A DNA stretch of 4,165 bases from a virus (taxonomy: Duplodnaviria > Heunggongvirae > Uroviricota > Caudoviricetes): the IMG/VR virus record IMGVR_UViG_2531839103_000002; one strand, given 5' to 3'. The translations under genes and the position numbers were made by a program. Positions 1 to 4,165 of this stretch are shown one piece after another. The notes under the pieces are model-generated. The model saw only the letters and a program-made list of their open reading frames with translations, did not search any database and was not told the origin of the DNA. Within the stretch, counting starts at the first letter, position 1; every line of letters starts with the position of its first letter.

Positions 1-481
1 GATTGCTCAGATTGGCGCGATGACTGAACAGCAAATCCGGCAGGTCTGCCGTCAGTGCATGGACCGCTGCCGGGCGGGTGAAACGTGGCCTCCGGACCTG
101 GCTGAGTTTGTGGCGTTGATTTCGGAGAGCGGGGCAAATCCATTTGGCCTGACGGTGGATGCCGTGATGGAGGAGTACCGTCGCTGGAGGAATGAATCCT
201 GGCGGTACGACGGGAGTGATAAATACCCGTGGCCACAGCCGGTGCTGTACCACATTTGCCTCGAGATGCGTGACAGAGGGATTGAGCGGCAGATGACGGA
301 AGGTGAGTTAAAACGACTTGCAGAACGGCAACTGACGAAATGGGCAAAGCAAGTTGGTAACGGGATGAGTATTCCCCCGATCCGGAGACAACTCGCATCG
401 CCGAAGTGCCCGCAAGGGCCAACGCCAATTGAATTACTGAAACAGGAATACGAGCGCCGGAAGGCGGCTGGTTTTGTTTGA
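1..481 (+). CDS. Replication protein P-like (lambda P family, DnaB helicase loader), 5'-truncated by the window edge
   Basis: The frame is open from position 2 to TGA 479-481; the first in-window ATG is at 20, but no stop lies upstream, so the gene probably begins before the window. The translation aligns by eye with the central and C-terminal part of lambda P as I recall it: TEQQIRQ...TWPPDLAEFVA versus MEQVNAG...FLPSPGQFVAW, a shared YPW motif, and MTEGELKRLAERQL...GNGMSIPP versus LTDAELRRKAADEL...NRGEAIPEP. Confidence 0.7.
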   Translation, partial: IAQIGAMTEQQIRQVCRQCMDRCRAGETWPPDLAEFVALISESGANPFGLTVDAVMEEYRRWRNESWRYDGSDKYPWPQPVLYHICLEMRDRGIERQMTEGELKRLAERQLTKWAKQVGNGMSIPPIRRQLASPKCPQGPTPIELLKQEYERRKAAGFV

Positions 482-514
482 ATCTGAGAAACGATTTTGT
501 CGGAGGAAATTTTA

Positions 515-1231
515 ATGGAAACCGTATCTGACGCACTGAAAGCACTGAAAAGAGCCTCTTCACATGTGGTGGCAGCTCGCCTTGGAATTAGTCGTGAAGA
601 GGCTGTCAACGAACTGTGGAAACTGAAACGCCGTGGAGAAGCGGATAACAAGGGGGCGATATGGTGGCTGACTCAGGCTGGTGAAAGTGAACCGGTGTCA
701 CCGGTACCGAAAGTGACGGCGCAAATGCTGACAGAGGCGATTGAACAACATGGCCCACAAACGGCGGATGAACTGGCATTGATGTTCGGAATTACCTCCC
801 GCCGGGCGAATTCATCGCTGGCAATGGCAATCAGCAAAGGGTGTCTGATTCGCGTGAATCAGGATGGTAAATTTCGTTACTGCATACCGGGCGTTGATTT
901 ACCGGCAGAGCCGAAAGCAGCATCCGTAGCTGAAACGGAGGGTAAAGCCCTTCCTCAGCCAGCTGGTGTTGCGTTACCAGTCCAGGAAACGGCTGCACAG
1001 GAAGAAATTAAAACAGAAGCGGTGGAGGACATTGTGAAGTTGCAGCAATCGTTCACTGAAGCGAAAGCAGATGACCTGATTCTACCATCGCTGCATGTGG
1101 CTAACCGCGAGCTGCGCCGGGCGAAAAGTAATGTTCAGAAGTGGGAGCGAGTCTGTGCTGCGCTACGGGAACTGAACAAACACAGGGATATTCTCCGGGA
1201 TATTACCGCCACCAGAGAGCAGCAGCGGTGA
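515..1231 (+). CDS. Hypothetical phage protein; two N-terminal segments look like winged-helix/HTH folds, followed by a Pro/Ala/Glu-rich linker and a helical C-terminus
   Basis: ATG 515 is preceded by GGAGG (502-506) at 8 nt spacing; the ORF track's 497 start is a TTG without a better RBS. Stop TGA is at 1229-1231. It sits 33 nt after the P-like gene in the same orientation. The fold assignment is by eye from [31 protein letters not shown] and [32 protein letters not shown]. Confidence 0.7.
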
Positions 1232-1545
1232 GTGGCTGGAAGAAGTGGCGCTGGGCTGAAATCCTGATACTCCGGCAGTGTGCGGGAACGATGAGAGTCG
1301 AAAGCATCGGTTATCTGATTGGCCGTAGTGAGTCAGCCGTCAGGACGAAAGCGCGGGAACTGGGTATCAGCATGATGTTACGGGGTGATTATCACCAGTC
1401 AGCCAAATGTTCACAGCGTGATATTGAGCTGGCGTGGCAACTGCATCAGCGTGGTGTACCCCGACGGGAAATTGCCGAAAAGTTTGGGATGAAGTTGGGC
1501 GCAGTGAATAACTACGTTTATTTCGACAGGAGGGTTCAGGAGTGA
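1228..1545 (+). CDS. Putative small HTH DNA-binding protein (GcrA-like / NinH-like helix-turn-helix pattern)
   Basis: GTG 1228 overlaps the upstream stop (GTGA, 1228-1231), implying translational coupling. Alternative in-frame starts are GTG 1141 (ORF track) and ATG 1291. Stop TGA is at 1543-1545. The segments [21 protein letters not shown] and [19 protein letters not shown] look like HTH motifs. The start codon is uncertain. Confidence 0.55.
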
Positions 1546-1844
1546 GGGTGAGGGTTTATATCGCCGGTCCGATGACGGGATATGAAAATTTTAACCGCGA
1601 GGCATTTCACAAAACGGAAGAGGTGCTGAAACGGGAAGGGCATACCGTTTTAAACCCGGCAGTACTTCCGGACGGGCTGACTCAGCCACACTACATGGAT
1701 ATTTGCATGGCAATGCTCCGTTGCGTGGATGCGGTTTACATGCTGAAAGGCTGGCAGCAGTCGGCAGGTGCAGGGGCTGAGCTGGCACTGGAGGAGAAAC
1801 CGGGCCATGCGGTGATTTTTCAGGAGGTGGGCAGTGAATATTGA
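1542..1844 (+). CDS. DUF4406 / nucleoside 2-deoxyribosyltransferase-like domain protein
   Basis: GTG 1542 overlaps the preceding stop (GTGA), with AGGAGG at 1527-1532 upstream. The N-terminal motif VYIAGPMTG followed by NFNR...F is the signature I associate with the nucleoside 2-deoxyribosyltransferase-like fold (DUF4406, PF14359). Stop TGA is at 1842-1844. Confidence 0.7.
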   Translation: MRVRVYIAGPMTGYENFNREAFHKTEEVLKREGHTVLNPAVLPDGLTQPHYMDICMAMLRCVDAVYMLKGWQQSAGAGAELALEEKPGHAVIFQEVGSEY

Positions 1845-2151
1845 CCCGGCGATAACGATTGATATGGCCCTGAACGCCGGCCTGGCACTTCTTGGTTATT
1901 TCTACATTATGTTCTGCAGCGGACGATGGCTGTCACTGTTGTTCATGAAAAAATGGAATAAACGCCGTAAGCAGGAGCAACGCCAGAAGGCAATGGATGC
2001 ATTTTTCGAAGCCTTCGGAATTGACGGCATGGAACCAGGGGATCCAGCTCGCGCAATCAGCAGAGGGGGTGTAGTAATCCTTGTATATCGGAGTGAAGAG
2101 AAAAATGACGATCACAAAACAACGTGTAGAAGAAATCATATCCCGCATTGA
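1834..2151 (+). CDS. Small predicted membrane protein (one N-terminal hydrophobic helix followed by a Lys/Arg-rich segment)
   Basis: GTG 1834 is preceded by AGGAGG (1822-1827) at 6 nt and overlaps the 3' end of the upstream gene by 11 nt. The hydrophobic stretch is ALNAGLALLGYFYIMFCSGRWLSLLF, followed by MKKWNKRRKQEQRQK. The 3' 47 nt overlap the next ORF, so the true C-terminus is uncertain. Confidence 0.5.
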   Translation: MNIDPAITIDMALNAGLALLGYFYIMFCSGRWLSLLFMKKWNKRRKQEQRQKAMDAFFEAFGIDGMEPGDPARAISRGGVVILVYRSEEKNDDHKTTCRRNHIPH

Positions 2152-2422
2152 AATGTATGGACATGGTGCAGGGTATATCGCAGACGAGGTTAATGATCTG
2201 GCTATACTGGCGCTGAATTTATCAAATATCGCGAACCTGAAGCGATACGAGCTTGATATGGGAGGTTGCGACTCGTGCGGTCAGGATTGTGGCGCTGATA
2301 TGACTGAAGATCCTGATGGTGATTATGTCCTGTTTGATGACGTGGTTAAGTTGTTTGAATTTGATACAACCACTCAAAAGTTAGAAATCCCGGCAAAGGA
2401 GGCAGCCAGTGGGCAAGATTGA
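2105..2422 (+). CDS. Hypothetical acidic protein with a Cys-rich CDSCGQDCG motif
   Basis: ATG 2105 has a GGAG-like RBS at 2090-2093. Alternative starts are ATG 2153, two nt after the upstream stop, and TTG 2081 (ORF track). Stop TGA is at 2420-2422. The gene is visibly more AT-rich than its upstream neighbours. Confidence 0.55.
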   Translation: MTITKQRVEEIISRIEMYGHGAGYIADEVNDLAILALNLSNIANLKRYELDMGGCDSCGQDCGADMTEDPDGDYVLFDDVVKLFEFDTTTQKLEIPAKEAASGQD

Positions 2423-2846
2423 CTATCAGGCACTGCGTGAGGCAGCACAAAACTATCAATCGACGCTGGCGTGGTATCAGGCTACCCCGGACAGCCCAAA
2501 TGCTGAACGGGATTGTGATGCGGCTCTTGCTGCGTTTAAGCGTCACATCCGTCATCGGGAAGCGGATATTATCGCTGATTTGCTGGATGGACTGGAAGAA
2601 GCAAAATCACAACTCAACGAGCAGCGTGAGTATTACGAAGGCGTTATCTCTGATGGGAGCAAGCGTATTGCTGAACTGGAAGCGCGGGAAGTTCAATTAC
2701 CGACTCGCTACGACCTTCGATATGGACACCCGATAAATGCAGATGAGCGACATGTCATGATACCTAAAGAAAATGGCAGTTGGCTTTACCTGATTGACCT
2801 AGAACACGCATTACGCGTCGCTGGCATTCGCATCAAAGGAGAGTGA
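2409..2846 (+). CDS. Hypothetical phage protein; the N-terminus (IDYQALREAAQ...) is reminiscent of ead/Ea22-like prophage proteins (low confidence)
   Basis: GTG 2409 is preceded by a strong RBS AAAGGAGG (2395-2402) at 6 nt and overlaps the upstream gene by 14 nt. Stop TGA is at 2844-2846. The central region looks coiled-coil (EEAKSQLNEQREYYEG...RIAELEAREVQL). Confidence 0.65.
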   Translation: MGKIDYQALREAAQNYQSTLAWYQATPDSPNAERDCDAALAAFKRHIRHREADIIADLLDGLEEAKSQLNEQREYYEGVISDGSKRIAELEAREVQLPTRYDLRYGHPINADERHVMIPKENGSWLYLIDLEHALRVAGIRIKGE

Positions 2847-2847
2847 G

Positions 2848-3039
2848 ATGAACGGACAAATATCAATTGTTCGACCAGGAGCATGTGACGATCGCGAAAT
2901 ACGAATGATTATTCGTCTGGCGATGGGGAAAACAATAACTGCTCTCATTACTCCAGAAAATCTCGCATTAGCATTAACAGGAAAGTCAGACATGCCAGTA
3001 GAGCTAAAGCTGCGAAATGTTGAGATTAAGGTGAAATAG
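2848..3039 (+). CDS. Hypothetical small protein (63 aa)
   Basis: ATG 2848 lies one nt after the upstream TGA, with AAAGGAGAG (2836-2843) as RBS. Stop TAG is at 3037-3039. It is AT-rich relative to the flanking genes. Confidence 0.55.
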   Translation: MNGQISIVRPGACDDREIRMIIRLAMGKTITALITPENLALALTGKSDMPVELKLRNVEIKVK

Positions 3040-3041
3040 CT

Positions 3042-3599
3042 ATGACCACTATTACCAAAGATCGACTGCTGACAATCCAGCATTGGCGCGAAACATACGG
3101 ACCGGGTAGCAACGTTGTGCTTCCAGCAGAAGAAGCGGAAGAGCTGGCACGGATTGCGCTGGCATCACTGGCAGCAGTATCGGATGAACGAGCAGCCTAT
3201 GAATTATTTATGGAGAAGCGTTTCGGAGAATCTGTAGATCGCCGCAGAGCAAAAAATGGCGATAGAGATTACATGGTATGGGATATGGCGCTTGGCTGGA
3301 TTATCTGGTGTCACCGCGCCGCCATGCTTCAGGCTGGAAACTTTCGGGAAAATAAGGGTTCGTCAACCAATAATTTTCGGATAATCTCGGAAACGTCAAC
3401 CAACTCTCCGGCAATCCCTGATGAGGTGTTGTCCGCAATCCTGAAGGTCGCCAGGCTTCGTGCAGATTTCGATGCTTCTGAAGTGGACAGGCGAGGTATC
3501 GGTAGTTGTCTGGATGAGGCCGAGCAAGAACTTATCGTTACCATTAACGAATACGCCAGTCAGATCGCAGTAGAAGCGACACAGGGGGAGAACCAATGA
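3042..3599 (+). CDS. Hypothetical phage protein (185 aa), function unknown
   Basis: ATG 3042 lies two nt after the upstream TAG, with an AAGGTGA RBS at 3028-3034. Stop TGA is at 3597-3599. I could not assign a family from the sequence. Confidence 0.65.
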   Translation: MTTITKDRLLTIQHWRETYGPGSNVVLPAEEAEELARIALASLAAVSDERAAYELFMEKRFGESVDRRRAKNGDRDYMVWDMALGWIIWCHRAAMLQAGNFRENKGSSTNNFRIISETSTNSPAIPDEVLSAILKVARLRADFDASEVDRRGIGSCLDEAEQELIVTINEYASQIAVEATQGENQ

Positions 3600-3673
3600 G
3601 CCGGCCAGATGCATTTGCAGGCGTTGCTATAGCTATTGCTTTTCTAGTATATGTTATTTGTCGGTGGGGGTAA
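3596..3673 (+). CDS. Candidate 25-aa hydrophobic micropeptide (MSRPDAFAGVAIAIAFLVYVICRWG)
   Basis: ATG 3596 overlaps the upstream stop (ATGA), with GGGGGAG (3583-3589) at about 6 nt. Stop TAA is at 3671-3673. It is too short to appear in the ORF track. The product would be a single predicted transmembrane helix. It is supported only by coupling geometry and hydrophobicity. Confidence 0.35.
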   Translation: MSRPDAFAGVAIAIAFLVYVICRWG

Positions 3674-3708
3674 AAACGTTCGCCGGGATTCACACCAAGG
3701 GAGGGAAT

Positions 3709-3813
3709 ATGTCGGATGATATTTCACTGGTAATGGAAGGCGCTCTGGCTGTTATTGCTGTTGTGGGTGTTTACTGCCTGGTTGTGTTTTTGATGGAGCG
3801 CCTGGGGAACTGA
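3709..3813 (+). CDS. Candidate 34-aa single-transmembrane-helix small protein (MSDDISLVMEGALAVIAVVGVYCLVVFLMERLGN)
   Basis: ATG 3709 is preceded by a strong RBS AAGGGAGGG (3697-3705). Stop TGA is at 3811-3813. The product has an acidic N-terminus, a roughly 20-residue hydrophobic core and a short charged tail. It is absent from the ORF track because of its length. Confidence 0.5.
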   Translation: MSDDISLVMEGALAVIAVVGVYCLVVFLMERLGN

Positions 3814-3823
3814 ATTCATTCCG

Positions 3824-3839
3824 TATGGGAATTCCCATA
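3824..3839. repeat. Perfect 16-bp palindrome TATGGGAATTCCCATA
   Basis: The sequence is exactly self-complementary and contains an EcoRI site at its centre. It lies 10 nt after the stop of the 34-aa ORF and about 15 nt upstream of the predicted hok -35. No U-tract follows it. Confidence 0.9.
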
Positions 3840-3853
3840 TCGGGCAAAACGGT

Positions 3854-3881
3854 TTGCTGTAAAGCGAGAGTTAAGTAGAAT
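3854..3881 (+). promoter_or_regulatory. Predicted sigma70 promoter for the hok mRNA
   Basis: A -35-like TTGCTG (3854-3859) and a -10-like TAGAAT (3876-3881) are separated by a 16-nt spacer. The predicted start near 3888-3890 coincides with the GCTTGAGGC motif that I recall at the 5' end of the plasmid R1 hok mRNA. Confidence 0.45.
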
Positions 3882-3887
3882 TGCTGC

Positions 3888-4056
3888 GGGTGCTTGAGGC
3901 TGTCTGCCTCGGGCATGCCACCGTAAGGCAGACAGAGAAAAGCCCCAGTTAACATTACGCGTCCTGCAAGACGCTTAACATTAATCTGAGGCCCAATCTA
4001 TGCTTCACAAACGTAGGTTAGCCTCTTACGCGCCGAAAGGCAAGGAGAAGCAGGTT
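3888..4056 (+). promoter_or_regulatory. hok mRNA 5' leader with structural elements, the Sok target region and a mok-like upstream start
   Basis: Hairpin GAGGC-TGTCT-GCCTC lies at 3896-3910. A perfect 9-bp inverted repeat CTGTCTGCC (3900-3908) / GGCAGACAG (3927-3935) offers a mutually exclusive pairing. ATG 4000 has a CTGAGG RBS-like sequence at 3985-3990. The hok RBS AAGGAG is at 4042-4047. The overall order resembles the R1 hok leader as I remember it. Confidence 0.55.
3938..4008 (-). ncRNA. sok: Predicted Sok-like antisense RNA (antitoxin of the hok/sok type I TA system)
   Basis: On the minus strand there is a -35 TTGCCT (plus-strand 4038-4043), a 17-nt spacer and a -10 TAACCT (plus-strand 4015-4020), giving a start near 4008. 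The transcript would be antisense to the leader around ATG 4000 and would contain the stem GCGTC/GACGC (plus-strand 3958-3974) followed by a pyrimidine/U-rich tail. The ends are approximate. Confidence 0.45.
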
Positions 4057-4165
4057 ATGAAGCAGCAAAAGGCGATGTTAATCGCCCTGATCGTCATCTG
4101 TTTAACCGTCATAGTGACGGCACTGGTAACGAGGAAAGACCTCTGCGAGGTACGAATCCGAACCG
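4057..4165 (+). CDS. hokD: Hok/Gef-family type I toxin, 3'-truncated by the window edge; the first 36 residues match HokD/RelF as I recall it
   Basis: ATG 4057 has AAGGAG (4042-4047) 9 nt upstream. The translation is MKQQKAMLIALIVICLTVIVTALVTRKDLCEVRIRT, with the transmembrane helix and TRKDLCE motif characteristic of Hok/Gef. An in-frame ATG at 4000 could give a 19-residue N-terminal extension, so an automated annotation might call 4000 as the start. Confidence 0.8.
   Translation, partial: MKQQKAMLIALIVICLTVIVTALVTRKDLCEVRIRT

Follow-up and report, generated by a model that had tools for sequence, protein, structure and literature searches.

The right-hand end (positions 3854-4165) of a 4,165-nucleotide (nt) stretch of viral DNA (IMG/VR record IMGVR_UViG_2531839103_000002, Caudoviricetes), hereafter the window, most probably carries the larger part of a structurally intact hok/mok/sok type I toxin-antitoxin module, which combines a hokD toxin allele with a hokW-type leader and resides in a lambdoid prophage. 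The sequence elements of the module are present, correctly ordered and conserved, and its mRNA is predicted to adopt alternative folds. A preliminary description of the window, made from its letters alone, had read this end as a prophage-borne hok/sok-type locus whose leader is intact; this proposal is borne out by a full-length match to the corresponding RNA family and by the recovery of every element that it listed, at or near the positions it gave.

An Rfam scan of the whole window returned one significant match, to RF01794 ('sok'), at 3888-4062 on the plus strand. RF01794 models the leader strand of the hok mRNA, and the match spans model positions 1-157 of 157 with 114.9 bits against a gathering score of 59 (E = 1.4e-26), far beyond chance. 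A second hit, to the small nucleolar RNA ceN48, was dismissed as chance (E = 0.97, far under the gathering score).

Toxin gene, leader and promoters

The toxin coding sequence begins with the ATG at 4057 on the plus strand, 9 nt downstream of a Shine-Dalgarno (SD) sequence, AAGGAG, read at 4042-4047. Its first 36 codons (4057-4165) lie in the window, which ends inside the gene, and translate to MKQQKAMLIALIVICLTVIVTALVTRKDLCEVRIRT..., exactly the peptide in which the preliminary description had recognized a Hok/Gef N-terminus. About three-quarters of the locus is contained in the window and the remainder lies just beyond 4165. Positions 3600-4165 are 100% identical to many complete chromosomes of enterohaemorrhagic Escherichia coli (EHEC; O157:H7, O26 and others), and the chromosome of strain E2865 was used as locus L001 for the continuation (L001 coordinate = window coordinate + 2401; positions past 4165 are referred to as virtual). 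There the hok open reading frame (ORF) reaches virtual 4212 and encodes 51 amino acids, identical to K-12 HokD. The completed product matches Pfam PF01848, HOK_GEF, with E = 1.2e-23 and 82.9 bits (cutoff 22), which confirms the assignment made from the N-terminus, and the gene is named hokD by PGAP in the identical EHEC chromosomes. An fbi element, CCUCAACGCACCC, at virtual 4262-4274 on the plus strand, about 50 nt past the hok stop codon, complements the RNA 5' end with one bulged base, and a terminator consisting of a GC-rich hairpin and a T run follows at virtual 4281-4308. The downstream extension that the preliminary description had suggested as a check is thus supplied by the identical EHEC chromosomes, which yield a complete hok, the fold-back element and a terminator.

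The codon for Tyr47 lies within a UACG motif (GCUUACGAACC) at L001 6596-6599, corresponding to virtual 4195-4198 and hence outside the window; the motif is conserved in this copy of hok as continued in L001. Adenosine-to-inosine (A-to-I) editing of UACG-type sites by TadA is reported to give Cys in hokB, and also in hokC, hokD and hokE (bioRxiv 10.1101/2025.08.07.668861).

Overlapping hok in the same frame is mok, which starts at the ATG at 4000 (plus strand, 4000-4165), is interrupted by the window end and comprises 70 codons in the complete locus. It is preceded by 8 nt by its own SD sequence, GAGG (3988-3991), which belongs to the stem partner (3988-3992) of both the ucb and the dcb elements. 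The mok frame stays open through hok, a layout shared with the annotated mokW of phage 933W and with an R1-like plasmid locus. The in-frame arrangement was considered as an unusual trait and rejected as such, since those two loci are arranged alike.

The 5' end of the hok mRNA is formed by the tac element, GGGUGCUUGAGG (3888-3899), which is identical in 933W. It is followed on the plus strand by a stable 5' hairpin predicted at 3900-3935 and by ucb, AAGCCCC (3940-3946), which by predicted pairing is the anti-SD sequence of mok. The mok start codon resides in a predicted hairpin (3995-4019), and the Sok 5' tail would bind the first part of it, 3995-4008. The dcb element, GCCUC (4021-4025), pairs with 3988-3992 both in the predicted fold of the truncated RNA and in the Rfam consensus structure.

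The putative hok promoter was placed by reference to the RNA 5' end and by homology to 933W and the R1-like locus. Its putative -10 hexamer, TAGAAT (3876-3881, plus strand), lies about 6-7 nt before the RNA 5' end at 3888 and is identical in 933W hokW and in the copy of O157 strain 472. The putative -35 hexamer, TTGCTG (3854-3859), was read from the sequence 16 nt upstream of TAGAAT and agrees with TTGACA at three of six positions. The sole promoter-like match of a generic scan (TTAACA/TATGCT, plus strand, L001 6376-6405) falls inside the leader, fits no known element and was left unused.

Predicted RNA states and the putative Sok antisense RNA

The full-length RNA of 421 nt (3888 to virtual 4308) has a predicted folding energy of -174.9 kcal/mol (z = -6.7 versus shuffles). 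In its minimum-energy fold tac (3888-3899) pairs with fbi (virtual 4262-4274), and 3942-3944 of ucb pair with 3990-3992, overlapping the mok SD sequence. The 3'-truncated RNA is predicted to pair 3888-3895 of tac with 3940-3946 (ucb) and the mok SD segment 3988-3992 with dcb at 4021-4025, a fold that equals the consensus structure of RF01794. The nascent RNA, taken as its first 28-49 nt, would form a hairpin in which tac pairs with 3906-3915. The R1 hok mRNA is described as passing through a closed tac/fbi state, an open state with tac/ucb and SD/dcb pairing, and a metastable nascent hairpin (PMC9841398); the three states predicted here match these.

On the opposite strand a putative Sok RNA of 71 nt runs from 4008 to 3938. 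Its ends were transferred from the annotated sokW misc_RNA of 933W; the two loci align without insertions or deletions, so the ends carry over directly. The preliminary description had predicted a convergent minus-strand promoter producing an antisense RNA of roughly 65-70 nt; the putative promoter sits where the start of the annotated 933W sokW would put it. The RNA is predicted to fold into a long terminator hairpin, preceded by an unpaired 5' tail of 14 nt and followed by a U tail, with an energy of -29.2 kcal/mol (z = -5.2); none of 200 shuffled sequences folds as well. The 5' tail is complementary to 3995-4008 and therefore spans the mok AUG. The putative sok promoter comprises a -10 hexamer, TAACCT (complement of 4015-4020), 6 nt upstream of the Sok start at 4008, and, across a 17-nt spacer, a -35 hexamer, TTGCCT (complement of 4038-4043). 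Neither hexamer differs in 933W; at the -10 position the R1-like locus reads TATCCT.

The hairpin targeted by Sok (3995-4019) accumulates many differences between near-identical copies, even within one genome, as seen in comparisons with loci L002, L019 and L086, and of the 24 positions at which the window locus departs from the strain 472 copy, about 10 are located in this hairpin. Its loop ranks among the three most variable sites of the transcript. Such variability of the target could limit cross-talk among co-resident Sok RNAs. The stronger proposal that the Sok target is uniquely hypervariable, through selection for insulation, was rejected, as two other hairpin loops in the transcript are equally variable.

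Taken with the predicted folds, these elements suggest the following mode of action, which is modelled on that of plasmid R1 and of hokW. An mRNA of about 420 nt would start near 3888, and during its synthesis the 5' tac would be kept in the transient hairpin. The finished RNA would be closed by tac/fbi pairing, with ucb covering the mok ribosome-binding site. Slow 3' trimming would then strip fbi, upon which tac would switch to ucb and the mok start region would refold, rendering mok, and hok along with it, translatable. A short-lived 71-nt Sok, made from the convergent promoter, would bind the mok start hairpin through its free 5' tail, blocking translation and leading to cleavage of the duplex. 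Once Sok synthesis stops, the stored mRNA would yield Hok; candidate triggers are loss of the element, shut-off of transcription, and prophage induction as reported for the homologue in prophage Sp5. Hok would act as a small inner-membrane peptide that depolarizes the cell and either kills or lyses it. Overexpression of the HokD coding sequence is reported to be toxic (bioRxiv 10.1101/2025.08.07.668861).

Conservation among relatives and the question of activity

The locus occurs at 80-96% identity in 79 phage records, including 933W, VT2-Sakai/Sp5, other Shiga toxin (Stx) phages and mEp460. Its leader (3854-4056) is covered to at least 80% in 4252 of 5426 complete E. coli genomes, at a median of two places per genome and up to nine; enrichment of hok loci in prophages has been reported (bioRxiv 10.1101/2025.08.07.668861). 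For a wider view of the family, 80 Hok loci were collected from species-representative genomes, and 56 of 57 sequence-cluster representatives were scanned with Rfam; 49 of these 56 gave a full RF01794 match.

Pairing between tac and fbi was evaluated in a set of 50 loci, comprising 47 Rfam-positive representatives together with the window locus, 933W and the R1-like plasmid locus. A complement of the RNA 5' end lies 45-57 nt past the stop codon in 44 of the 50. Across this set the two elements change in a coupled manner (GGGUGC with GCACCC, GGGCGC or GGCGC with GCGCC(C), GAGG with CCUC, and GAGA with UCUC), which amounts to U-A/C-G and G-C/A-U exchanges. A comparison of cognate with non-cognate tac/fbi duplex energies over the same loci was dropped in favor of position-specific pair counts, because tac is nearly invariant (9 variants) and leaves the energy test without power.

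Among 17 close relatives, tac/fbi positions are paired in 98% of cases, tac/ucb in 99% and mok SD/dcb in 100%. Three pairs of the 5' hairpin have changed in a compensatory way, for example 3902/3933, where G-C is replaced by A-U in 12 sequences. Along the transcript, variability in these relatives is lowest in the regulatory boxes and highest in the hairpin loops. A decayed sibling, found in E. coli ECMA0423 (L008 500-960), retains a perfect HokD ORF, fbi and terminator; its tac is mutated (GACTGCATGTGGC), its 5' hairpin is broken, its ucb carries a 1-nt deletion, and it has no RF01794 match. Decay of a leader is therefore detectable at this level, and it is absent from the window locus.

Several points weigh against reading the locus as an intact and working module. 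The hok -35 hexamer, TTGCTG, departs from the TTGCGG of 933W. Both the hok and the sok promoter fall under the threshold of a generic sigma-70 scan and neither is listed by it; both match the consensus weakly, and their placement depends on homology. The last quarter of the locus, at the 3' side, falls outside the window and was taken from genomes identical over its last 566 nt (3600-4165); as the window is a mosaic with no single 100% record, this downstream sequence is borrowed. Transcription of both RNAs, toxicity, neutralization by Sok and the role of this copy are what we infer from close relatives. Finally, the intact-looking chromosomal hokA, hokB and hokC are reported to have failed earlier tests for post-segregational killing and for activation by rifampicin (bioRxiv 10.1101/2025.08.07.668861), so that intact anatomy is no guarantee of activity.

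Those three chromosomal loci provide the precedent for a locus that is anatomically intact but physiologically silent, with both RNAs perhaps made and Hok never reaching meaningful amounts. The weak consensus match of both promoters would fit such a state, as would the possibility that Tyr47 requires A-to-I editing to Cys for full toxicity (bioRxiv 10.1101/2025.08.07.668861). Silence is nevertheless unlikely here, given that the 92%-identical hokW-sokW is active in its native prophage, that all regulatory boxes are conserved and the helices kept across relatives, and that decayed copies betray their decay in sequence.

Two further observations concern the distribution of such loci. In Erwinia sp. 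CGal63 and Kalamiella sp. (L058 250-397, L074 362-389), a hok leader matching RF01794 with 131-133 bits lies about 100 nt after CRISPR-DR4 repeats; the hok locus thus adjoins a CRISPR array. Near-identical E. coli-type hok loci are also found under the labels Actinobacillus phage vB_Apl-pPE4 (PP818812.1), a Veillonella parvula metagenome-assembled genome, Acinetobacter idrijaensis, Xanthomonas pisi, Streptomyces morookaense, Ferruginibacter and Oscillibacter. These oddly labelled records (PP818812.1, L015, L025, L031 and L063-L065), most of them on short contigs, look like contamination or wrong host assignment rather than a real distribution.

Prophage context and comparison with known loci

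The gene content of the window points to the early-right region of a lambdoid prophage from an enterohaemorrhagic-type E. coli. The first ORF (20-481) encodes the C-terminal part of replication protein P and is followed by ORFs for a DUF1627 protein, a small helix-turn-helix protein, DUF4406, DUF4752 and an Ead/Ea22-like protein, then by a region labelled DUF551 in the closest O157 match, two tiny ORFs encoding hydrophobic products, and a 244-nt stretch without annotated genes that leads to hok. The two tiny ORFs lie directly upstream of the hok promoter on the plus strand, at 3596-3673 (25 amino acids, MSRPDAFAGVAIAIAFLVYVICRWG) and 3709-3813 (34 amino acids, MSDDISLVMEGALAVIAVVGVYCLVVFLMERLGN; labelled hypothetical protein in RefSeq); both could be small membrane peptides.

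The gene order in E2865 and O157 strain 472 is repressor/cro, replication genes, accessory genes, hok, a rem-like gene, DUF968, rusA, and Q-like or DUF1133. The same order as in E2865 is seen in K-12 Qin, with an antiterminator gene at the Q position, and in the free phage mEp460, which carries hok in the same slot. The preliminary description had put the locus at the end of an early operon; this has to be corrected, for it sits between the replication/accessory genes and rem/DUF968/rusA/antiterminator. Elsewhere in the E2865 prophage, about 5 kb downstream of hok (L001 11815-12069) and after tRNA genes, Rfam matches STnc100 (140 bits) and, on the opposite strand, the anti-GcvB small RNA AgvB (96.5 bits).

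The window itself is a recombinant mosaic of two prophage types. Positions 1-3417 are 99.85% identical to the O157 strain 472 prophage and 3153-4165 are 99.4-100% identical to the E2865-type prophage, so that the junction lies somewhere in 3153-3417; the two matches overlap inside the ORF at 3042-3599. No single complete genome in the collection matches the window at full length and 100%, the best full-length matches covering 95-96%.

The hok locus has the orientation of the operon upstream, and a generic scan found no terminator-like site between the upstream small ORFs and hok, the sole one found being that which follows hok. Co-directionality and the missing upstream terminator, along with the weak -35 hexamer, would be compatible with hok being expressed mainly as a passenger of the early-right transcript rather than from its own promoter, in the manner of the third gene of K-12 relBEF, with Sok and the leader being secondary. 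We regard this as very improbable: tac falls exactly at the RNA 5' end as placed by the Rfam model and by fbi pairing, the TAGAAT hexamer is conserved at the right distance from it, and hokW mRNA is found in uninduced Sp5 lysogens (PMC8621323). Read-through, moreover, can supplement transcription from the locus's own promoter without replacing it. A related but separate proposal, which we hold to be decidedly unlikely, is that upon induction read-through from the early promoter collides with the convergent sok promoter, silences Sok and adds hok RNA, making the locus an induction-coupled device for lysis timing and not an addiction or abortive-infection module. Were this so, such collision would offer a mechanism for the RecA-dependent loss of sokW RNA in Sp5, though the Sp5 copy sits elsewhere.

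An intact hok/mok/sok module remains the preferred assignment, and loci of this type are already known, annotated, studied and very common. The novelty implied in the preliminary description for a prophage copy with a preserved leader therefore does not hold, such copies having been annotated since the 933W record and found functional in Sp5 (PMC8621323). The present analysis adds little beyond showing that a type I toxin-antitoxin locus is recognizable from raw sequence, and documenting that hokD of K-12 derives, without the leader, from an intact prophage module that is widespread. If active like its Sp5 relative, the locus would play a part in the timing of lysis, the retention of the prophage or the exclusion of phages in Shiga-toxin-producing E. 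coli, whose genomes contain up to nine such loci; the window makes the question of per-copy roles no more tractable than do the published systems. The alignments, which the preliminary description had suggested as a further check, match the leader to known loci element by element, with no sign of divergence beyond them.

The closest well-studied relative is mokW/hokW/sokW of 933W, whose genome record annotates all three. The two loci have the same order of elements and differ by 36 substitutions and no insertions or deletions over 426 nt (91.5% identity; 93.5% over window positions 3846-4165). None of the substitutions falls in tac, ucb, either SD sequence, dcb, the sok -10 and -35 hexamers or fbi, and one base pair (3902/3933) has changed in a compensatory manner. 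Of the 51 toxin residues, 47 are shared with HokW; each locus has mok in frame with hok, and the predicted Sok has 71 nt with the same ends. Whole-locus identity places the window locus in the hokW/sokW subgroup of lambdoid phage loci. The two loci differ in the toxin C-termini (…FTAYEPEE in the continuation of the window locus, …FVDYESEK in HokW), in the terminator and in the region of the Sok RNA, where three of five substitutions are in the 5' recognition tail (3999, 4005 and 4006). The genomic setting also differs, the 933W copy lying near attR and antiparallel to its large neighbor L0134, whereas the window copy lies inside the early-right region and is co-directional.

Takada et al. (2021) studied the Sp5 homologue and showed it to be a functional type I system that hastens lysis; their experiments concern the hokW allele, not the hokD allele of the window. 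HokW was toxic and localized to the inner membrane, and sokW, transcribed from its own promoter, neutralized it in a manner partly dependent on RNase III and Hfq (PMC8621323). Upon induction with mitomycin C, sokW RNA vanished and HokW was produced, RecA-dependently, and deletion of the locus delayed growth arrest and halved phage release (PMC8621323).

Comparison with hokD (relF) of K-12 Qin reveals the same toxin attached to a different upstream region. The proteins are identical at 51 of 51 residues and the nucleotide identity is 98-99% from 4043, in the hok SD sequence, through fbi and the terminator. The downstream neighbors are alike (rem, DUF968/ydfU, antiterminator), with homology resuming at 82% over rem/ydfU. 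Everything upstream of 4043 is replaced in K-12 by relB-relE, so that the hok promoter, tac, ucb, the mok start and the Sok region are lacking and only a partial sok -35 remains, whereas in the window the leader is complete and relBE is absent. The Rfam scan gave no RF01794 match in the K-12 Qin hokD region; this, with homology beginning only at 4043, upholds the earlier statement that K-12 hokD lacks the regulatory elements. The window locus accordingly does not have a K-12-type relBEF architecture, and seems to represent the intact version of that prophage slot.

The hok/mok/sok (parB) locus of plasmid R1 and related IncF plasmids has the same architecture and the same predicted folding pathway, the metastable 5' hairpin included; its mok is likewise in frame and begins 19 codons upstream, and its Sok promoter has the equivalent position. 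The Hok proteins are only 43% identical. The tac element begins GGCGC… in R1 and GGGUGC… here, a difference matched by the change in fbi. In the R1-type leader the 5' hairpin is longer, and the region of the Sok terminator hairpin shorter, than in the window locus. R1 is a plasmid with established post-segregational killing, whereas the window locus belongs to a prophage.

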